A program made the translations under genes and the position numbers. The notes below the pieces were generated by a model that searched no databases, was not told the DNA's origin, and saw nothing but the letters and a program-made list of their open reading frames with translations. Positions 5,229-42,436 of a DNA stretch of 64,000 bases are shown piece by piece. Numbering within the stretch: the stretch's first letter is position 1; every line of letters begins with the position of its first letter. The stretch is from Peptococcaceae bacterium UBA5318 (GTDB taxonomy: Bacteria > Bacillota > Peptococcia > DRI-13 > UBA5318): contig DHRG01000049.1 in the NCBI GenBank assembly GCA_002408285.1, forward strand, positions 5,647 through 69,646, read 5' to 3'.

Positions 5229-6601
5229 TTGTTAGTGTGGTGAATAAATTGATGCGGTTACCGGAAGAATTCAACATTCAGATGCGGGGTTTGTTAACGG
5301 AGGAATGGGAGGAATTTCTGGCTGTCTGGCATGTTCCGCCTCACCTGGGACTTCGTGTGAACACCCTGAAGATACCGGTGGATCAATTCCTCAAGCGCAC
5401 TTCTTTTCATCTGGAACCCATCGCCTGGACTACGGACGGTTTTTACTGCAGTTCTGAGGAAAGACTTGGTAAACATCCCTATCATCAAGCCGGGCTTTAC
5501 TATTTACAAGAGCCGAGCGCTATGGCCCCGGTGGCCTGCCTTGATGTGCAGCCGGGGGATAAAGTCCTGGATTTGTGCGGGGCTCCCGGGGGGAAAACGA
5601 CCCAAATCGCGGCCAGCTTGCAAGGAAAGGGTCTTTTGGTTACCAATGATATCAAAGCGGAACGCGTCAAATCCCTGGTGTGGAATGTTGAGCGCTGGGG
5701 GGCGGGGAATGTGGTCGTAGCCAACGAGGACCCCCATAAATTAGCGGTCAGTTTTCCGGGCTTTTTTGACAAGGTCTTGATTGATGCGCCTTGTTCAGGG
5801 GAAGGTATGTTTCGCAAGGATGAGCGGGCCATCCGCAGTTGGTCGGTCTATAATAATGAGTCTTGCGCAGCTTTACAAAAGCAAATATTGGAACAGGGCG
5901 CCCTCATGTTAGCTGAACAGGGGCGGCTTCTCTATTCCACCTGCACTTTTTCTTCCCAGGAAAATGAGGCTGTGATCGCTGATTTTTTAAGCAAACATCC
6001 TGAATTTACGCTGGCGCCCCTCCCGCTGGAGTACGGTTGGAGGCCTGGATTAGCCGGGTGGCCTGAAACGGCCAATGTCAGGAGGTTATGGCCCCATAAA
6101 GTAAGGGGCGAGGGACATTTCTTAGCGCTTTTAGAAAAGAAAAGTACCGGTGAAATTCGAGCGAAGACCGGCCCGTTTATGACCGCGCCCAAAGGGCTTG
6201 ACTCTTTTTGGAGCTTTATGGAAGAGAATTTACTGGCTATACCTGCGGGATCCTTAGTTTTGCAGGAGCCTTTTCTTTATTGCGTTCCCCCGGGGCTTCC
6301 GGATCTCCAAAACCTGAAGATTGTCCGGCCCGGGCTGTTTATGGGCATATTAAAAAAGGGGCGTTTTGAACCATCTCAGGCCTTAGCCATGGGACTAACC
6401 CCCGGAAGCGTACAAAGAAAGCTGCAGTTAGCAGTGGATGATAAAGGGATAGAACGATACCTGAAAGGCGAAACCCTGATGTACAGCGGTAGTACAGGCT
6501 GGACCCTGGTTTGCCTGGAGGAATTTCCGCTTGGCTGGGCTAAGCAGACAGGGGACTATCTGAAGAATTATTATCCGCCCGGATGGCGGTTAATGGGTTA
6601 G
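5225..6601 (+). CDS. rsmF: rRNA cytosine-C5 methyltransferase, RsmB/RsmF (NOL1/NOP2/Sun) family
   Basis: 458 aa with DLCGAPGGKT, DAPCSGEGMFRKD and a TC catalytic Cys (YSTCTF). It overlaps trmB by 4 nt. Confidence 0.85.
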   Translation: MIVSVVNKLMRLPEEFNIQMRGLLTEEWEEFLAVWHVPPHLGLRVNTLKIPVDQFLKRTSFHLEPIAWTTDGFYCSSEERLGKHPYHQAGLYYLQEPSAMAPVACLDVQPGDKVLDLCGAPGGKTTQIAASLQGKGLLVTNDIKAERVKSLVWNVERWGAGNVVVANEDPHKLAVSFPGFFDKVLIDAPCSGEGMFRKDERAIRSWSVYNNESCAALQKQILEQGALMLAEQGRLLYSTCTFSSQENEAVIADFLSKHPEFTLAPLPLEYGWRPGLAGWPETANVRRLWPHKVRGEGHFLALLEKKSTGEIRAKTGPFMTAPKGLDSFWSFMEENLLAIPAGSLVLQEPFLYCVPPGLPDLQNLKIVRPGLFMGILKKGRFEPSQALAMGLTPGSVQRKLQLAVDDKGIERYLKGETLMYSGSTGWTLVCLEEFPLGWAKQTGDYLKNYYPPGWRLMG

Positions 6602-20879: not shown

Positions 20880-21641
20880 TCAATCTCTCCAGATTCTTCC
20901 GAGAGAACGGACCACAACCTCTTGCTTCATAACTTCCTCCGGTTTGCCCATGGACTGGACCGTCTTGTTCAAAAAAATCATCCGGTCGGCATACTGGGCA
21001 ACCAGGGATAAATCGTGAGAGATCAGGATAATGGACATGTCCCATTTGTGGCGAAGGTCATTCACCAACTGGTAAAAAAGCGCCAGCCCGCTCTCGTCCA
21101 CTCCTGAAACCGGTTCATCCAGCAATAACAGAACGGGGGCAGGTTCTAAGGCCAAAGCCAAGAGTACCCTTTGCAATTCCCCCCCGGAAAGGCTGCCCAG
21201 TTTTTGGTCGATCAAGTGGTCCGCGTTGACGCGGGCTAAGATGGCGAGGATCTTCTCGCGAATTTTTCGCGGGCGAAAAAGCCATACCGGAAGAGAAGTC
21301 AGACTGGCCGTAAACAAATCCCGGACGCTGACCGGAGAGCCCAGGTCAAAGTCCAACCGTTGGGGGACATAACCCACCAAAGGGTTGTCCTGTTGATGGG
21401 CAAGGCTTGTAAAGCGTATTTGGCCGGTATGCGGTATTTCTCCCAGAATAGCCTTTAGGAGCGTCGTTTTACCGGCTCCGTTAGGCCCGATCAGGGCGGT
21501 CAATTCACCGCAGTGGATGTGGAAATTGATATCCTGAAGAATGACCTTCCTTCCCCGGGTAACGCCGAGATTTTCAATTTTTGTGCAGCATAAGTCACAG
21601 GTCGCGGGAGGGGCTTGGGGTAAACGCTCAGCCGTTCTCAT
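20880..21641 (-). CDS. znuC: Metal ABC transporter ATP-binding protein
   Basis: GPNGAGKTT, LSGGELQR and LLLLDEP. Confidence 0.85.
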   Translation of the reverse strand: MRTAERLPQAPPATCDLCCTKIENLGVTRGRKVILQDINFHIHCGELTALIGPNGAGKTTLLKAILGEIPHTGQIRFTSLAHQQDNPLVGYVPQRLDFDLGSPVSVRDLFTASLTSLPVWLFRPRKIREKILAILARVNADHLIDQKLGSLSGGELQRVLLALALEPAPVLLLLDEPVSGVDESGLALFYQLVNDLRHKWDMSIILISHDLSLVAQYADRMIFLNKTVQSMGKPEEVMKQEVVVRSLGRIWRD

Positions 21642-22565: not shown

Positions 22566-22687
22566 TATTATAATCATTAGGATGGACAAATTACAAGGCT
22601 TTTATACATAATATCTTTACAATCCAGTAGTTATCTGCTATAAAATAGTAGTGCTATGTAAAATCAAACAAAAGGAGCTGCCCCAAA

Positions 22688-24091
22688 ATGAGTGAGGAAT
22701 TACTTCAAACAACTCCCGCTTGGCTTGGAAGATATGCTTATTACCGTTTAGGCAGCATGACGATTAATCAATTAAAAAAGGCGAAAATAATAAATAAGTT
22801 CTCCAAAAGCCTTTCCGACAAGAAACCTGATGGGCTGATTGTGCTGCCGGGCGGAATTGTCAAGGCGGTCATAGAATATAAAACCCCTCATGAGCTATCC
22901 GCAAGAAATAAGATCGAAGCTGTTGTTAAGCAAGAATTGGAAGTTGCAAGATTCCTCTGTAAGCTGCTTATTGTTACAGACGGGAATAAAACATTCTGGA
23001 TAAATGCGTTAAACGGAGAGGAAATACATAGAAACAACCAAAAAATAGAGATGGTTTTTGATGCGTCAAGAATTATCAATAGGCAAATTACTATTGAAGA
23101 ACAGATCAATTTAGAAAACTTGATAGACCAGGCGGACTATTCTCTTACTGAAACTTCAAGTTCTATTGTTGAGCCGGAAATTTTGGACCCTACCGCTTTA
23201 GCGAAAGAAGTTTGGCAGAAGATTTGGATCAATACCGGCAAGGAGCCGGAGAAATGTCTTTACAATGTCGTTGAGATTTTTGTATTTAAATTTCTCAGCG
23301 ATATCGGCGTTCTTAACTATACCAATAATTTCAACAGCGTCTACCAGATCAAGGAGAACATCGGGAATGAAGCGGCGCTTACCCGTTATGCGGACGTCTG
23401 CCGTAAGGCTGTTAAAGACGAAATGTTTCAAAAAGGCGACGACGGAACAACTATTCTCAATGGCACGATTTTCGTCAATGAAAAAGGAAGCGCGAATATC
23501 AGCCAAGCTGATTTATTTGCCGGGGCGTTGGAAAGCTTTCAAAAGTATGATGAAAAAAACGGCTCGTTCAAATACGTTACCAAAGAGTTTAAAACCCGTC
23601 TTTACGAAACGTTTCTAAGGCAAAGCGCCGGTGTAAAAAACCTCGGACAATACTTTACGCCCCGTAATGTGGTTCAGGCAATGGTAAAAATGTCTTGCGC
23701 CTCTTCTTTGAAAAGGGGTGCGCGTATCTGCGATCCTTTTTGCGGAGTCGGGGGGTTTATACTGGAAACTATCTTGTTGAATGAAAATATATTTCAAGAG
23801 TTTGAGCCGAGAAACGGTCTGATTGCTCCGCAGATCACATTAGTAGGTTATGATAAAGGGACCGATGAAAAAGACGATGAACGGACTATTATTTTAGCCA
23901 AGGCCAATATGCTGATTTATTTTTCCGATCTATTGTCAAAATACCATACCCGTGAACATTTGAACTCTTTTTCAAAAAACGCTTTTAATAGTGTATTTCA
24001 TTTAATAAAAACAAATCTGGGCACATTCGGCAAAATCAATGATGAAAAATACGATTTAATACTTACCAATCCCCCCCTATGTAACGAATAG
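22688..24091 (+). CDS. Type IIG-like RM enzyme, N-terminal fragment (PD-ExK nuclease motif plus N6-adenine MTase motifs X/I), truncated inside motif IV
   Basis: KPDGLIVLPGGIVKAVIEYK, GQYFTPRNVV and DPFCGVGGF. It ends TNPPLCNE* because of a C7 run. Confidence 0.8.
   Translation: MSEELLQTTPAWLGRYAYYRLGSMTINQLKKAKIINKFSKSLSDKKPDGLIVLPGGIVKAVIEYKTPHELSARNKIEAVVKQELEVARFLCKLLIVTDGNKTFWINALNGEEIHRNNQKIEMVFDASRIINRQITIEEQINLENLIDQADYSLTETSSSIVEPEILDPTALAKEVWQKIWINTGKEPEKCLYNVVEIFVFKFLSDIGVLNYTNNFNSVYQIKENIGNEAALTRYADVCRKAVKDEMFQKGDDGTTILNGTIFVNEKGSANISQADLFAGALESFQKYDEKNGSFKYVTKEFKTRLYETFLRQSAGVKNLGQYFTPRNVVQAMVKMSCASSLKRGARICDPFCGVGGFILETILLNENIFQEFEPRNGLIAPQITLVGYDKGTDEKDDERTIILAKANMLIYFSDLLSKYHTREHLNSFSKNAFNSVFHLIKTNLGTFGKINDEKYDLILTNPPLCNE
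24071..24077 (+). repeat. Poly-C tract (C7) causing the frameshift in the RM gene
   Basis: AAT CCCCCCC TAT. With C6 the text reads N-P-P-Y and joins the downstream frame. Confidence 0.9.
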
Positions 24092-24122
24092 TTCAGCCAA
24101 TATCAAGAAGTCGGCCGCTCAA

Positions 24123-25304
24123 TTGTCAGATACGGACCATCAACCATACTATAGGCTAAAAGGCCGGGGCATAGAAACGCTGGCCTTGGAGTGGATCGTC
24201 AAAAACCTTGCGCCCGGCGGAGAGGCAGTTATTGTTGTTCCGGACGGTTTGCTGACGCAAAAATCCGTATTGGATTTTATAAAATCTGAATGCAGAGTAA
24301 ACGTTGTGGTTTCATTGCCCAAAAACACATTTTATGCGACGCCCAAAAAGACATACATACTTTCTATCAACAAAAAATTTGCTCCTGGCCGCCAGTTGAC
24401 GCCGGTTTATACGTATATAGTCAGTGAAATAGGAGAAACCCGTGATACGAAGCGGTTTTCAAATGACGGGCAAGGTAATCCTGTACGCAACGATCTGGAT
24501 GAATGCGTTAAGAACTATAAGCTGTTTAAAACAGGGATAGATCATAGGGGCTCCGAACGGGTAAAAATTATTGACTATGATACTTTTGATCTTTTCCAAG
24601 ACTGGTTGATTGAAAAAAAATTGAGTGACGAAGAAAAATGCAGGATCGGTTTGATGAAACCGGTCCAGAAGATCACTGAAAATGAATTCTTATCCAGTTT
24701 ATCCGCTTTAAACAATTATATTTCAGCGGTCGTTGACCGAGGCGAATCAATCCCCTTAGGGGAGATCAAATATGTTTCCAAGCCTCTTTCCAAGCTGTTT
24801 GATTTTCCCCAAATAAAAGGCTTAACTGAAAAATTTATACGAAATAACAGCGGGAATATTCCGGTTTATGGAGGAAGACAGACTGAGTCGCCCGTTGGAA
24901 GCGTTGCGGATAATTTAAAAGGCGTTAAGTATTTTGAAAACTGCTTAGCCTGGAATAGAGAAGGCTCGGTGGGATATGTATTTTACCACGGCCATAAGTT
25001 TACGACGAATGACCATCACCGGCCCATGGTATTGAAAGAGGAGTACCGTTTCATAATTAATCTGCAATTTGTCCAAAAAATGCTGCAGACCAAGCTTCTG
25101 GAATCCGATTCTTTTGAATGGAGCAAAACTGCCAGCAAGGAAAAGGTTCGTGAAATTGAAATTCTTTTTCCCATTGGTAAAAACGGGAAAATAGATTTTG
25201 AGATGCAGGGTTTAATTGTTAAGCGAATTGAAAAGTATGAGCTGGTTAAAAAAAGTCTATTGGAAAAAATAGAAAATCTCAGTAAGTATAAACTGGATTT
25301 CTGA
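24123..25304 (+). CDS. Type IIG-like RM enzyme, C-terminal fragment (rest of the MTase fold plus an HsdS-like target-recognition domain); probably not independently translated
   Basis: This frame is open from 24078 and continuous with the upstream ORF after a -1 C. There is no ATG or SD at 24123. TRD-like segment: IPLGEIKYVSKPLSKLFDF...NIPVYGG...REGSVGYVFYH. Confidence 0.7.
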   Translation: MSDTDHQPYYRLKGRGIETLALEWIVKNLAPGGEAVIVVPDGLLTQKSVLDFIKSECRVNVVVSLPKNTFYATPKKTYILSINKKFAPGRQLTPVYTYIVSEIGETRDTKRFSNDGQGNPVRNDLDECVKNYKLFKTGIDHRGSERVKIIDYDTFDLFQDWLIEKKLSDEEKCRIGLMKPVQKITENEFLSSLSALNNYISAVVDRGESIPLGEIKYVSKPLSKLFDFPQIKGLTEKFIRNNSGNIPVYGGRQTESPVGSVADNLKGVKYFENCLAWNREGSVGYVFYHGHKFTTNDHHRPMVLKEEYRFIINLQFVQKMLQTKLLESDSFEWSKTASKEKVREIEILFPIGKNGKIDFEMQGLIVKRIEKYELVKKSLLEKIENLSKYKLDF

Positions 25305-25335: not shown

Positions 25336-25372
25336 AAAGGAGCCGTCCCAGCTTGAACGGGACAGCTCCTTT
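25336..25372. terminator. Bidirectional terminator between the RM gene and the M23 peptidase gene
   Basis: AAAGGAGCCGTCCC...GGGACAGCTCCTTT forms a 14-bp stem with one mismatch. Confidence 0.75.
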
Positions 25373-25417
25373 ATAATTTCCACAGATTTACAGATTAAAA
25401 GAAGCAGGGGATCCAAT

Positions 25418-27956: not shown

Positions 27957-29948
27957 TTAATAATTTTTAGCTTTTATGTATTGGATGAATCTTACCAGAT
28001 AACCTGTTTTACCTAACCAGGCAAAGAGGATAATCAGGACAAATGCAAAGACAAAACTGCCATAAGCATACCAAAGGGAGCGCAGGCGGACTTCCGTCTG
28101 CGTCATTCCATACAATTCTTGCAGCGACTGGGACCAGCTTTTGCCTTCCCCGATAGACACCAGGATGCCATAAAAGATATTGGGTTTTTTGTCCTGAAGA
28201 TATTTCAACATCAGCACATAGGGACCCTTGCCCAGCATCAGGGCGTTCCCCAGCTGTTCCAATTGCTGTTGCGGAAGGGTCTGCCAGCCCTTTCCATATA
28301 AAGAGCTTAGAAAATAACGGTGGAGTTGGAGATTGGTTTCTTCAAAATTAAAAGGCGCGGGGGTATATGAGAAAAAGAAGGGTCCGTCGTATTGCTGGGT
28401 CAAGGAGTTCGGTTTCCCCAAAAAGACAATATAAGGATAGGTATTTCCGGATGTCAGCGGAATAAAACGTGTTTCTTTGACCATCCTCAGATAACTATTA
28501 AACCATCTGGCAAGCTCATCCCGATCCTTTTCCGCATAATCTCCTAAGACCAGATTCGCGCCGCTGTAACGCAGCTTTGGTATTTCAAAGGAAAGCTGGC
28601 TGCTTAAGAAAAAGACGTCTTTGTTTCCGGTTGTGACCTGATGATGGTAAGCGTCCGCAGTCTTAAATTCATAGTACAAACGCTGCATAGACCGGTCGGC
28701 GGCAGGGATAAAAAACAACGGAAAATATTCGTATTGATAAGGCTGAAGCTGAAAGACCTTGGTTTGGACAGGCTCGTCTTCCCAGTTGTATTCTAAGATG
28801 ATGGTTTCAATGTCCCCGTCCGGATCCGTGACGTTGCAGCTTACGGTATATCCGGTATTCCCTTCGCCTAATTCCGCTTTAAGCAAGGAAATTTCCGGGC
28901 GGGCCGGCTTGATTTTGCCGGAAGGGATTTGGGCGGCCAACCAGCCCTGAATAAGAGGGTGTACCTGTAACTCGCGGGCCTGGTCGTATAAATCGAGCAG
29001 CTTGCCCGGAACTCGGGAGTAGAGATGTCCAACCTCCCAGTAAACGATGGGAGAGGTAGCCTCATCCTCATATAAAGACAGCCAGATCATCTTGGCTTCC
29101 TCAGTATTACCGGCTTTCTTCAAGTAATAAGCTTGGGCTATCCGGAAAGGTTCCCTGGCTTCAGGGTCTATTCGGTCGGCAATTTTACGGAACAGGGCAG
29201 CCGCTTCAAGATAATAGTGGTGTGCCAGATAACCCCGCAGGAGAGTTTTGTGTTCCCCGGACAGATTATCTTCCCATAATTCCCGGTCAGCTTTTAGATT
29301 GATCTTGATAAAAATATCTTCTATTTCTGAAGCATCGTTCCATTTCCAAACCATAGTATCGTCTTGAAAGTGAAAATCCCGGGGGCGGATATCGGAAAAC
29401 ATAGCGGGATGGATCTCGTTCAGATCAACTGTTACCGTAGCGGCGCCTTTTTCCGCCGCCCAAAAAGAATTTTTGGCTGGATGGTAGCCGCTGAATACTA
29501 TTTTGTTTGGCGATATACTTTCGAACTTATAAGTGAGGGACAAATCAAGCTCTGCGTTAGGCTCCAAAGTGATTTCCCAGGAATAGGCCTGCTTTTTTAT
29601 ATTGTAGGAGGCGTTGTATTCAAAACTGTCGTTCGCGGCTATGAAATAAGGCTTGCCGCCGGCCGTGGCGGGGTCTTCGCTGGAAGCGCGGGGAACAGGT
29701 ATCCATAAAGTAGCCCGGACCGCTTTTTCTGTAGGATTTACAAGATGATAAACCCCCTTCACGAGAGTATGGTCTTCATATAAACTGAGCGCCAGGTTTT
29801 TTTGGGTCAGTTCAAGGACGGTTTTTTTTGAGGGCTGGGGGTCGGTTGGTAAAAACAGGCTCCCCTCTTCCTGAGCCGAAAGGGGTTGCGCAAAACCCAG
29901 TTGAAGGAGTACAAAAAGTATTGGAATGACGATTAATTTATATTTCAT
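27957..29948 (-). CDS. Hypothetical exported protein with a C-terminal membrane anchor
   Basis: 663 aa with an N-terminal signal peptide (…GFAQPLSAQEE), a central TPR-like helical stretch and a C-terminal TM (SFVFAFVLIILFAWL). No catalytic motif recognised. Confidence 0.6.
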   Translation of the reverse strand: MKYKLIVIPILFVLLQLGFAQPLSAQEEGSLFLPTDPQPSKKTVLELTQKNLALSLYEDHTLVKGVYHLVNPTEKAVRATLWIPVPRASSEDPATAGGKPYFIAANDSFEYNASYNIKKQAYSWEITLEPNAELDLSLTYKFESISPNKIVFSGYHPAKNSFWAAEKGAATVTVDLNEIHPAMFSDIRPRDFHFQDDTMVWKWNDASEIEDIFIKINLKADRELWEDNLSGEHKTLLRGYLAHHYYLEAAALFRKIADRIDPEAREPFRIAQAYYLKKAGNTEEAKMIWLSLYEDEATSPIVYWEVGHLYSRVPGKLLDLYDQARELQVHPLIQGWLAAQIPSGKIKPARPEISLLKAELGEGNTGYTVSCNVTDPDGDIETIILEYNWEDEPVQTKVFQLQPYQYEYFPLFFIPAADRSMQRLYYEFKTADAYHHQVTTGNKDVFFLSSQLSFEIPKLRYSGANLVLGDYAEKDRDELARWFNSYLRMVKETRFIPLTSGNTYPYIVFLGKPNSLTQQYDGPFFFSYTPAPFNFEETNLQLHRYFLSSLYGKGWQTLPQQQLEQLGNALMLGKGPYVLMLKYLQDKKPNIFYGILVSIGEGKSWSQSLQELYGMTQTEVRLRSLWYAYGSFVFAFVLIILFAWLGKTGYLVRFIQYIKAKNY

Positions 29949-32587: not shown

Positions 32588-33745
32588 ATGCCCATCCTGG
32601 TTCAAAAATATGGGGGAACCTCCGTCAATACCATTGATAAGCGCAGTAAGGTTTTAGATAAGATTATTGCCGCCAAAAATAAAGGATACGATGTGGTCGT
32701 TGTCGTATCTGCGATGGGAAGAAAAGGGGAACCTTATGCCACAGATACTTTGTTGGATTTATTGCAGGCGGTAGGTCCTGACCCCCGTCCCAGAACCAAG
32801 GACTTACTTGCTTCCTGCGGTGAGATCATTTCGACTTGCGTTGTGGCCCATGCGTTGGAACAAAGGGGTTATCAGGCTTGCCCGATGACAGGCATTCAGG
32901 CGGGCATCGAAACGAACGAAGTCTATACGAATGCCCAGATTCAAAATATTGACTCCAATCGCGTTAAAGAGGCGCTGCGCAACGGAGAAATTGTAGTATT
33001 AGCCGGGTTTCAAGGCTATACCGGCGACATGTCCGTAACGACTTTGGGCCGCGGCGGAAGCGATACCACAGCGATCGCTATCGGGGGAGCGCTAGGCGCG
33101 GAAATGGTAGAAATATATACCGATGTGCCGGGCGTGGCTTTTACCGACCCCCGTTTGGTTCCGGAGGCTCCTTATTTAAAGAGTATTGACTTTTATCCAT
33201 TATATGTGTTGGCCAGAGCTGGGTCTAAAGTGGTCCATCACCGCGCGGTCCAAACAGCCATAACATATCGGCGGCCTTTTGTGGTCCGTTCTACCTTTGA
33301 CGATAAGGAAGGGACGGTAATAGGAGAAGCTGGGGAGAGCTTCAATGGTTTCTATGGTATTGCGCTGCAAAAAAATATTTTAGTCCTGCAGGTAAATGGC
33401 CAGGATCCTGATGGCTTCTGGAAAGGCAAAGCTGTAGATGAATTATTTTACCAAAACGATCAAAACGGCTGCGTCCTGGCCATACCCGCCGGCGCCTCCG
33501 GTTTCTTGCAAGAGGTCGGGAATACGGGATATGACATATCTGAGGAATGTGACCTCCTCACGGTGATGTGGGACCCCCAAAGTATGATTACCCCGAAAAA
33601 AATAGAGGAATTATTGGCAGAAGGGGACATCACCGCGCGGGGATTTTTTGATTTCAAATCCGGCGGGGCTTGGGCGGTTCCCGTTCCGCAAACCGGACCG
33701 GCGCTGCGGCTTCTTTTCCACAGCAGTAAAAAAGCGGTTTTTTAA
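32588..33745 (+). CDS. Aspartate kinase
   Basis: VQKYGGTSV, VVVVSAMG and GRGGSDTTA. Confidence 0.9.
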   Translation: MPILVQKYGGTSVNTIDKRSKVLDKIIAAKNKGYDVVVVVSAMGRKGEPYATDTLLDLLQAVGPDPRPRTKDLLASCGEIISTCVVAHALEQRGYQACPMTGIQAGIETNEVYTNAQIQNIDSNRVKEALRNGEIVVLAGFQGYTGDMSVTTLGRGGSDTTAIAIGGALGAEMVEIYTDVPGVAFTDPRLVPEAPYLKSIDFYPLYVLARAGSKVVHHRAVQTAITYRRPFVVRSTFDDKEGTVIGEAGESFNGFYGIALQKNILVLQVNGQDPDGFWKGKAVDELFYQNDQNGCVLAIPAGASGFLQEVGNTGYDISEECDLLTVMWDPQSMITPKKIEELLAEGDITARGFFDFKSGGAWAVPVPQTGPALRLLFHSSKKAVF

Positions 33746-41197: not shown

Positions 41198-42436
41198 ATG
41201 GGCATACATACTCTAGCAGCGTCCCACGCAACCGGTAAGGGGGGGCCTGATGCTGTATTTGCGGTATCGCAAAAGGCTAACGAGGCCATCGCCCGTTTAG
41301 GCAAGGAAAAGGTTGTCAACGCTTCCATCGGCGCTATTTTTGATGATGAAGGAAGATTTGCCGCTCTTGATACCGTAGACCGGCACTATCGCAGATTGTC
41401 TAAAGACGAACTGATGAATTATGCTCCTATTGCAGGATTGCCTCAATATTTACAGGCGGCTATTGACTTTACTTTTCAGGGTAACCAGCCGGCCAACACA
41501 TTTGCCAGGGCGGTAGCCACACCCGGAGGGACGGGCGCAATCCACCATGTGGTTTACAACTATACGGAACAGGGCCAAAAGATTTTGATCCCGGATTGGT
41601 ACTGGGGCCCTTACCAAACGATCGCTAATGAAAATTTGCGTGATGTTGACGCCTACCGGATGTTTAATGAGAAAAACCAGTTTACCCTGGATCCTCTGCA
41701 GAAAAAGACGCAGGAACTTTTACAAGTTCAGGACAATCTGGTGACTATCTTTAATACGCCTGCTCATAACCCTACCGGCTACAGTATGACCGAAGGGGAT
41801 TGGCAGGAGGCCATCCGTTTCTATAAGGAATGCGCCCGGGATCAAAGCAAGAAAATAATCCTGCTTTTGGATATGGCCTATCTTGATTATGCGGGACCCG
41901 CCCAGGAAACCCGTAAGTTTCTGAAACTCTTTACCGGACTTCCGGATAATATTCTCATTACGATCGCTTTTTCTATGTCCAAGGCTTTCCTGATTTACGG
42001 GATGCGTTCCGGCGCTTTGATTGGAGTGAGTCCCTCCCAGGAAATTGTTGAGGAATTTGCCCAGGTCAATGCCTATTCTAACCGGGCGACCTGGTCTAAT
42101 GGCTCCCGGGGCGCTCAGAGATTGTTAGCGGACATCGTGGCCGATCCCCAACTGAAGCGGCAAACCGATGAGGAAAGAGATAAATTCTATAGCCTGATCA
42201 AAAACAGAGCGGATATTTTCGTCCGCGAAGCCAAAGAAGCAGGGCTGGTCATGCTGCCTTACCACGCCGGGTTCTTTATCACCATCCCGGTCGGCGACCC
42301 CAAGGCTGCGGCGGAAAAACTGACCGGGTCCAATATTTTTGTAGTCCCGTTGAAAAAGGGAATACGGCTGGCGGTTTGCGCCCTTCCGACCTACCAGATC
42401 CCAGGATTGGCTAAAAGAATAAAAGAAGCGCTGTAA
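41198..42436 (+). CDS. Class I/II PLP-dependent aminotransferase (aspartate/aromatic type)
   Basis: ATPGGTGA, HNPTGY and the SMSKAF PLP-lysine context. Confidence 0.8.
   Translation: MGIHTLAASHATGKGGPDAVFAVSQKANEAIARLGKEKVVNASIGAIFDDEGRFAALDTVDRHYRRLSKDELMNYAPIAGLPQYLQAAIDFTFQGNQPANTFARAVATPGGTGAIHHVVYNYTEQGQKILIPDWYWGPYQTIANENLRDVDAYRMFNEKNQFTLDPLQKKTQELLQVQDNLVTIFNTPAHNPTGYSMTEGDWQEAIRFYKECARDQSKKIILLLDMAYLDYAGPAQETRKFLKLFTGLPDNILITIAFSMSKAFLIYGMRSGALIGVSPSQEIVEEFAQVNAYSNRATWSNGSRGAQRLLADIVADPQLKRQTDEERDKFYSLIKNRADIFVREAKEAGLVMLPYHAGFFITIPVGDPKAAAEKLTGSNIFVVPLKKGIRLAVCALPTYQIPGLAKRIKEAL

Follow-up and report, generated by a model that had tools for sequence, protein, structure and literature searches.

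This report concerns a broken restriction-modification (RM) gene in Peptococcaceae bacterium UBA5318, an uncultured member of the Bacillota. The host DnaK is ~82% identical to that of Desulfotomaculia/Peptococcaceae-like metagenome-assembled genomes. The stretch analyzed (hereafter, the window) comprises 64,000 nucleotides (nt) of GenBank assembly GCA_002408285.1 (contig DHRG01000049.1, forward-strand positions 5,647 to 69,646), and positions are counted from its first letter. The gene appears in the window as two successive open reading frames (ORFs), ORF1 and ORF2, whose frames meet at a run of seven Cs (C7) flanked by T on either side (AAT CCCCCCC TAT). The run occupies the two Pro codons of the methylase motif NPPY (Table 1).

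ORF1 starts at an ATG with a Shine-Dalgarno (SD) sequence 10 nt upstream, encodes 467 amino acids (aa) with the C-terminal end ...DLILTNPPLCNE*, and has a protein product identical to an entry in public collections (P0121). In this broken reading, NPPY becomes NPPL, and a stop follows five codons on (NPPLCNE*); judged from the sequence, motif IV in this form is non-functional. The frame of ORF2 is open from 24060, reading YLPIPPYVTNSS..., and the +1 frame text ...PPYVTNSSANIKK... continues uninterrupted to the stop at 25304. Deletion of one C in silico restored a continuous 871-aa protein with ...LILTNPPYVTNSSANIKK..., and addition of one C (C8) led to a stop after four further codons. The 0-frame codon after the run is CTA (24077-24079), the rarest Leu codon in the window genes (3.5% of Leu codons).

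The mechanical call for ORF2 (TTG to stop, 393 aa) has no credible start of its own: by sequence inspection, no in-frame ATG was present for ~200 codons, and the best SD candidate for the TTG was AAGAAG, 12 nt upstream, with nothing better. No terminator was found between ORF1 and ORF2; a hairpin with a T-rich tail follows ORF2 only. This hairpin lies between the convergent RM and M23-peptidase genes and, from its sequence, is likely a bidirectional terminator.

A preliminary description, made from the letters of this stretch, had reported the C7 run and the two-ORF structure, attributed the split to one extra C in the Pro-Pro codons, denied ORF2 an ATG or SD of its own, and quoted the motifs KPDGLIVLPGGIVKAVIEYK (aa 46-65), GQYFTPRNVV (aa 320-329), and DPFCGVGGF (aa 349-357). 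The run, both ORFs, and all of the quoted motifs were recovered in the window, the inspection above agreed on ORF2, and the extra C was borne out by same-species orthologs, in which C6 accompanies an intact gene.

Table 1. Coordinates of the broken RM gene and associated features in the window (aa numbers refer to the repaired protein)
Feature	Position	Strand	Basis or remark
Promoter-like site TGGACA-18-CATAAT, putative	22583..22612	+	Consensus scan, 10/12 positions; consensus match only; in the intergenic region common to the divergent znuA-like operon
Shine-Dalgarno AGGAG	22673..22677	+	Read from sequence
ORF1, 5' part of broken gene	22688..24091	+	N-terminal domain, helical HsdM-N-like region, methylase motifs X and I
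N-terminal alpha/beta domain, putative PD-(D/E)xK nuclease, aa 1-160	22688..23167	+	
P47-D48 codons	22826-22831	+	
E63-Y-K65 codons	22874-22882	+	
Gamma-class N6-adenine methylase domain, aa 304-565	23597..24383	+	Split by the frameshift
Methylase motif I DPFCGVGGF	23732-23758	+	
Motif IV site AAT CCCCCCC TAT	24068..24080	+	Asn-Pro-Pro-Tyr in C6 alleles, NPPL here
C7 homopolymer with single-base insertion	24071..24077	+	C6 in orthologs L001 and L002
ORF2, mechanical TTG call	24123..25304	+	Rest of methylase fold, linker, recognition domain
Single HsdS-type target recognition domain, aa 701-862	24789..25274	+	Pfam Methylase_S
GC-rich hairpin with T-rich tail	25339..25379	.	From sequence; minus-strand entry in the scan

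The interrupted gene and its protein family

On sequence evidence, a single gene occupies the region and encodes one chain with methylase and specificity parts (871 aa when repaired). The Pfam N6_Mtase match bridges the frameshift (E value, 1.6e-24; aa 304-565 of the repaired protein), and full-length relatives align through the junction, with NPPYV (N461-V465) invariant in 50/50 aligned sequences; because both span the junction, the split is not a chance resemblance. ORF2 alone retained matches to the C-terminal part of N6_Mtase (1.3e-06) and to Methylase_S (9.7e-09). A search of ~5.8 billion proteins returned >3,700 relatives at an E value of ≤1e-5, among them one intact 871-aa protein that was 98% identical (P0001), ~20 proteins of ~870 aa that were about 70% identical, and a large set of ~686 aa without the recognition domain. 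The single interrupted gene of ~870 aa put forward in the preliminary description is thus upheld by the junction-spanning Pfam match and the intact 871-aa orthologs.

The shorter relatives show how the family is divided naturally. In Escherichia coli O55:H7 RM12579 and its relatives (L013-L015, 6001-9166), downstream of the gene for a 686-aa chain lies an overlapping "hypothetical" gene of 370 aa, and both of its halves bear a weak resemblance to the window recognition domain. The E. coli copy has KwaA/KwaB (Kiwa), an integrase, and an HNH/ScoMcrA-like gene as its neighbors in a defence island, and its RefSeq label is only "HsdM family methyltransferase"; a plasmid tblastn search with this relative as the query gave distant matches only. 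Such split versions are what would favor a genuine two-gene arrangement at our locus, with ORF1 and ORF2 translated apart and assembling into an active enzyme. The natural splits, however, come after a complete methylase domain and not inside motif IV. The catalytic Tyr of NPPY is missing from both window products, ORF2 has a TTG only and no SD, and no other database protein was found to end at the window's break point. An independent ORF2 was rejected on these grounds (no ATG or SD, lost catalytic Tyr, no homolog ending there), and we regard a functional pair of this kind as extremely improbable.

Two further arrangements were seen among relatives. In Lachnospiraceae orthologs (L016-L019, 5808-6008), the first 8 nt of the RM gene are shared with a gene for a 66-aa HTH_17 protein, perhaps a controller or an excisionase-like regulator; the window copy has no HTH_17 gene ahead of it. 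Family member P0049 (77% identical; L026, 3001-5267, and L027, 2285-4551) carries an internal deletion of aa 559-670 together with a frame change and resides on a small element with Mob_Pre and an integrase. From this deletion and its element, we conclude that the family is mobile and is lost through varied lesions.

Domain architecture and related enzymes

The methylase and recognition domains of the repaired protein were identified with Pfam, and both exceeded their curated cut-offs in the profile hidden Markov model search that the preliminary description had proposed as a check. N6_Mtase scored 87 bits (cut-off, 20.4), PADLOC gave an MTase_I match (E value, 1.2e-30), and HsdM chains in the PDB matched the methylase domain. 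Motif I (aa 349-357) precedes NPPY (aa 461-464) in the repaired protein and in all homologs, which is the gamma-class order, and the helical region found ahead of HsdM catalytic domains corresponds to aa 165-310. Methylase_S scored 33.9 bits (cut-off, 22) over aa 701-862, a single HsdS-type domain. In a full-length AlphaFold2 model (predicted local distance difference test [pLDDT], 84), the recognition region (aa 664-865) has long flanking helices (664-684 and 837-865), and in the 50-homolog alignment this region is hypervariable across the family. The model aligned end to end with BpuSI (Foldseek E value, 3.7e-18) and also matched the BsaXI RM chain, DrdV, and Type I HsdM. The repaired protein was found to have neither a helicase nor a translocase domain, and no companion methylase, R-subunit, or translocase gene was found among the called genes in ~20-kb views of the locus.

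The N-terminal domain (aa 1-160) is a probable PD-(D/E)xK nuclease, as judged mainly from its motif and modeled fold. It contains the motif P47-D48-x14-E63-x-K65, of which P47, D48, E63, and K65, together with K59, are invariant in 50 homologs (47-72% identity). In an AlphaFold2 model of aa 1-310 (pLDDT, 88.8), D48 stands directly before strand 49-53, and E63-x-K65 sits where strand 57-64 ends on its C-terminal side, with helix 73-90 and strand 93-97 next; this is the canonical order of the PD-(D/E)xK core. A Foldseek search of the PDB with this domain returned BpuSI at the top (E value, 0.03), EcoR124I HsdR, and DrdV, all restriction enzymes with N-terminal nuclease domains, at E values of 0.03 to 0.1 and template modeling scores of ~0.2-0.3. 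HSDR_N was matched in 8/23 relatives and HSDR_N_2 in 6/23, all below threshold (13-18 bits versus a cut-off of 25); when ten members were scanned singly, all six sub-threshold matches to these two families fell within aa 39-110. Pfam gave nothing meaningful in the N-terminal region of the window protein (aa 1-310), and a family profile of the N-terminal 165 aa against PDB sequences returned noise only (E value, 0.7 or worse). The nuclease ("HsdR-N") label of the preliminary description is therefore weakly supported: the motif, the strand order, the weak Foldseek matches, and the sub-threshold HSDR_N matches in relatives speak for it, and the empty Pfam and PDB profile searches against it.

Three candidate classifications were set aside. 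MAD2 of the MADS system was rejected because the match to NF047738 (64 bits versus an equivalog cut-off of 720) covered the methylase core only, and BREX PglX was rejected on score or architecture. A classical Type I RM system was excluded by the fusion of methylase and recognition domains, the nuclease-like N terminus, and the lack of a helicase-type R gene nearby. For the methylase core, Type I HsdM and HsdS did rank first in both sequence and fold, and the HsdS-type recognition domain is common to them and the window protein; the window protein differs in its extra 160-aa N-terminal PD-ExK domain, its fused recognition domain, and the absence of a helicase or translocase.

Three forms of Type IIB enzyme have been described by Pingoud et al. 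(PMC4081073; also PMC4027205). BcgI has an RM chain and a separate S chain with two recognition domains, AloI has one chain with two recognition domains, and HaeIV has one chain with one recognition domain and acts as a homodimer on a symmetric bipartite site, cutting on both sides. All three have an N-terminal PD-(D/E)XK nuclease and a gamma-class NPPY/F/W methylase (PMC4081073), and in the PD...EXK nuclease of BcgI, Glu53 is essential (PMC3592470). By domain layout, HaeIV/BcgI (Type IIB/IIC/IIG) is the closest known form, with the window protein HaeIV-like in layout and its 686-aa relatives BcgI-like.

The likeness to HaeIV (Haemophilus aegyptius; Type IIB/IIC) is one of domain layout: nuclease, gamma-class methylase, and single recognition domain occupy one polypeptide, and no companion methylase is needed; the window allele differs in being frameshifted. 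BcgI shares the PD...EXK N terminus followed by an HsdM-like NPPY methylase, and the 686-aa relatives with their ~370-aa gene reproduce its layout. The RM chain of BsaXI (8w2p_A) was a Foldseek match to the full-length model (E value, 1.7e-14), with sequence similarity below phmmer detection. In contrast to BcgI and BsaXI, the recognition domain of the window protein is fused and single. BpuSI (Type IIG/IIC; PDB 3s1s) has the same domain order and a length of ~870 aa and was the second-best whole-model Foldseek match (over 945 columns); it differs in its low identity (12-13%), in an N-terminal match that was not significant, and in being accompanied by two separate methylases (PMC4081073). By analogy with these enzymes, we infer that the intact C6 protein would dimerize via the helices flanking its recognition domain, methylate a single adenine per half of a bipartite, symmetric target, and cleave DNA near that target when it is unmethylated.

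Same-species comparison and the C7 call

Two same-species assemblies from two other sequencing runs, L001 (protein P0001) and L002 (protein P0123), served as comparators; the comparison of run length covers just two populations. Both read AAT CCC CCC TAT (C6) and encode an intact 871-aa gene, the outcome of the ortholog alignment that the preliminary description had suggested. L001 is 97.7% identical to the window at the nt level over 21 kb. The RM gene is bordered on one side by a znuABC-like operon and fur (in L001 too) and on the other by genes for an M23 peptidase and an alcohol dehydrogenase, and this layout is kept in L001 and L002 on the sides covered. No further same-species copy came to light elsewhere: a scan of Joint Genome Institute (JGI) metagenomes for the exact context of the C run found nothing, a protein-guided JGI scan gave relatives at 61-71% identity only, and GTDB representative genomes held relatives at 52-76% identity only. 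Looking up the sample accessions in the literature likewise gave no result.

Within the gene, the window and L001 differ by 45 substitutions and the inserted C, with no other indel or stop. The Nei-Gojobori ratio of non-synonymous to synonymous substitution rates (dN/dS) was 0.16 (28 synonymous and 17 non-synonymous changes), compared with 0.05-0.06 for neighboring housekeeping genes and 0.19 for a neighboring 663-aa gene. When the 17 amino-acid differences were polarized against the family, derived states at conserved positions numbered ~3 in the window lineage and ~2 in the other. These data thus give no indication of long relaxed selection, and the frameshift is therefore young relative to the strain split, or reversible, or not real. 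A long-standing pseudogene was rejected in view of the dN/dS of 0.16, the absence of a second lesion, and the balance of derived changes. The 663-aa gene itself (minus strand, 27957-29948) is kept in the sister strain and has no Pfam family on record.

The RM gene has a lower GC content than the window (40% versus 47%), and its closest relatives are scattered among Lachnospiraceae, Bacteroides, Endomicrobiellum, Gastranaerophilaceae, and Lentibacillus. These two features make horizontal acquisition probable, through insertion of the one gene between the znuA-like operon and the M23 peptidase gene.

Under an assembly or sequencing artefact, the true DNA would be C6 with an intact gene, and a homopolymer miscall would have put the extra C into the consensus. 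Homopolymers are the classic place for indel errors, coverage was modest (~16×), the gene shows no other sign of decay, and the same-species assemblies have C6. Set against this, the window is identical to ENA contig NODE_68, which comes from a SPAdes short-read assembly, and short-read chemistry rarely miscounts 7-mers. Five contigs of unequal length, in NCBI, ENA, and Logan assemblies, carry records of both split proteins, which points to more than one assembly procedure. The other 7-mers of the window, C7 at 21179-21185 (in a znuC-like gene) and G7 at 41239-41245, are in frame in intact genes, and the former is also C7 in L001. Over the 21 kb compared with L001, there were eight indels, of which the C in the RM gene was the only one in a gene body; a 1-nt indel at 33728 touches the last codons of an aspartate-kinase-like ORF (32588-33745; 385 aa versus 391 aa in the sister strain), and the rest were all intergenic. 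These internal controls favor a correct C7 call, and we consider an artefact unlikely.

Origin and meaning of the C run

We assign a probability of about 0.55 to the reading that the window carries a real, recent, slippage-generated null allele of a HaeIV/BcgI-like RM gene. According to this account, a solitary RM-specificity gene would have been acquired horizontally by the uncultured Bacillota host, whose codon preference would have turned the Pro-Pro of NPPY into CCC CCC and so produced a C6 run. Replication slippage in the assembled strain would then have added the seventh C, changing NPPY to NPPL with an early stop and cutting the recognition domain off from the rest of the protein. The ORF1 product would keep the nuclease-like domain and half of the methylase, without the catalytic Tyr and the recognition domain. 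Because methylation and restriction would be lost together, self-restriction would be avoided, and the loss would be a safe one. The outcome would be a null allele of recent origin that segregates in the species and lies at a site of mildly raised mutability, with no dedicated phase-variation device. We infer both slippage as the mutational mechanism and C7 as the true state of the DNA.

Several points weigh against this reading. The putative nuclease has no Pfam or PDB sequence match over threshold, and its Foldseek E values were 0.03-0.1. The five contigs that carry the split may all stem from the same reads, and C7 may result from an error in the consensus or be the more frequent length in a population that mixes C6 and C7. 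A difference of C6 versus C7 between close strains would also be expected from a slow reversible switch, and reversibility would explain the dN/dS of 0.16 of the broken gene as well as recency does.

A rival reading is a phase-variable ON/OFF gene, in which slipped-strand changes of run length occur reversibly at a useful rate and active C6 cells are mixed with null C7 cells. Frameshift-inactivated and phase-variable Type IIG genes are already well documented and are textbook examples in Helicobacter and Campylobacter (PMC3936762, PMC6321876): in Campylobacter jejuni cj0031 and Helicobacter pylori JHP1272 and HP1353-1354, a single-chain RM gene is switched off by a one-base change in a poly-G/C run, as in the window. 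Those genomes have many frameshift-prone repeats; here the ON state is C6, the run is unconserved, and such runs are avoided. Joint loss of restriction and modification is the safe design used by these switches, and the gene is otherwise intact and under purifying selection. A contingency locus is expected to differ in length between close relatives, to be hypermutable in both states, and to have its repeat upheld by selection. The length does differ at exactly this run (C7 in the window, C6 in L001 and L002), and the window allele reaches the lowest cut-off of the Campylobacter phasome (at least seven G/C), which is the most permissive published and at which mutability may be too low for reversible switching (PMC6321876). 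Longitudinal variability in C. jejuni NCTC 11168 was seen for tracts of eight or more (PMC6321876), and the H. pylori methylome study expected reactivation mainly for runs of >8 bp (PMC3936762). With C6 as the ON allele and C7 as the OFF allele, the ON state lies under every published cut-off, and the repeat is not of hypermutable length in both states.

Selection for the run itself was not apparent either. At nine more distant orthologous loci (52-75% identity; Lachnospiraceae, Bacteroides, Endomicrobiellum, Lentibacillus, and others), the Pro-Pro pair is encoded as CCA CCA, CCA CCT, CCT CCA, or CCG CCA, with no homopolymer at these codons in any of them. CCC makes up 34% of Pro codons in the window, a share from which CCC-CCC is expected for ~12% of Pro-Pro pairs, and it is the commonest Pro codon of the RM gene (12/29). 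As CCC is a major Pro codon in this genome, CCC-CCC is expected from codon amelioration, and codon usage accounts for the run. G/C runs of at least seven numbered 3 in the 64-kb window, compared with 21.7 ± 5.9 in dinucleotide-preserving shuffles; this genome strongly avoids, or purges, long G/C homopolymers. The C7 of the znuC-like gene does not vary in length between the two strains. On this sequence comparison, an evolved ON/OFF switch is not supported, and we consider phase variation possible but doubtful as the explanation of the window allele. The preliminary description had offered an artefact, a pseudogene, and a slipped-strand switch without ranking them; the evidence favors a real, recent null allele and goes against the evolved switch, since the run is confined to this lineage and accounted for by codon bias, the ON state is only C6, and G/C runs are depleted.

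A recoding signal would keep the C7 allele partly active through low-level +1 frameshifting, with peptidyl-tRNA-Pro slipping from CCC to the overlapping CCC while the rare CUA waits in the A site, so that NPPY is restored. CCC-C is a +1-prone context, the next 0-frame codon is the rarest Leu codon (CTA, as given above), and a slip would rebuild the exact catalytic motif. The context is, however, unconserved, the sister strains have plain C6, and inspection of the sequence revealed neither an SD-like stimulator nor an obvious structure downstream; such sites usually slip to +1 spontaneously at rates far under 1%. Recoding is highly improbable as an explanation, and even when it is pooled with the functional split considered earlier, the two together remain very unlikely.

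It is a long shot that the codon-ameliorated C6/C7 run is itself a slow, reversible ON/OFF toggle of a complete RM system in an anaerobic, free-living Firmicute; some remaining expression of the OFF allele, via +1 slippage at CCC-C before CUA, might help such a toggle. We know of no tradition of contingency loci in this type of lineage. If the toggle were real, the NPPY motif of adenine methylases would be an intrinsic seed of phase variation wherever codon bias favors CCC. If C6 and C7 lengths proved to be mixed, RM phase variation would reach an environmental anaerobe, which would broaden a well-known phenomenon modestly.

In annotation, this pair of ORFs is best entered as one frameshifted RM pseudogene or null allele, and not as two methylase genes. 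More generally, a slippage hot spot can arise within a catalytic motif when the Pro-Pro codons of NPPY are ameliorated. In the family of >3,700 matches to which the gene belongs, labeled "N-6 DNA methylase / HsdM family," an N-terminal nuclease has probably gone unannotated; the family members would then be self-contained Type IIB/IIG restriction enzymes.

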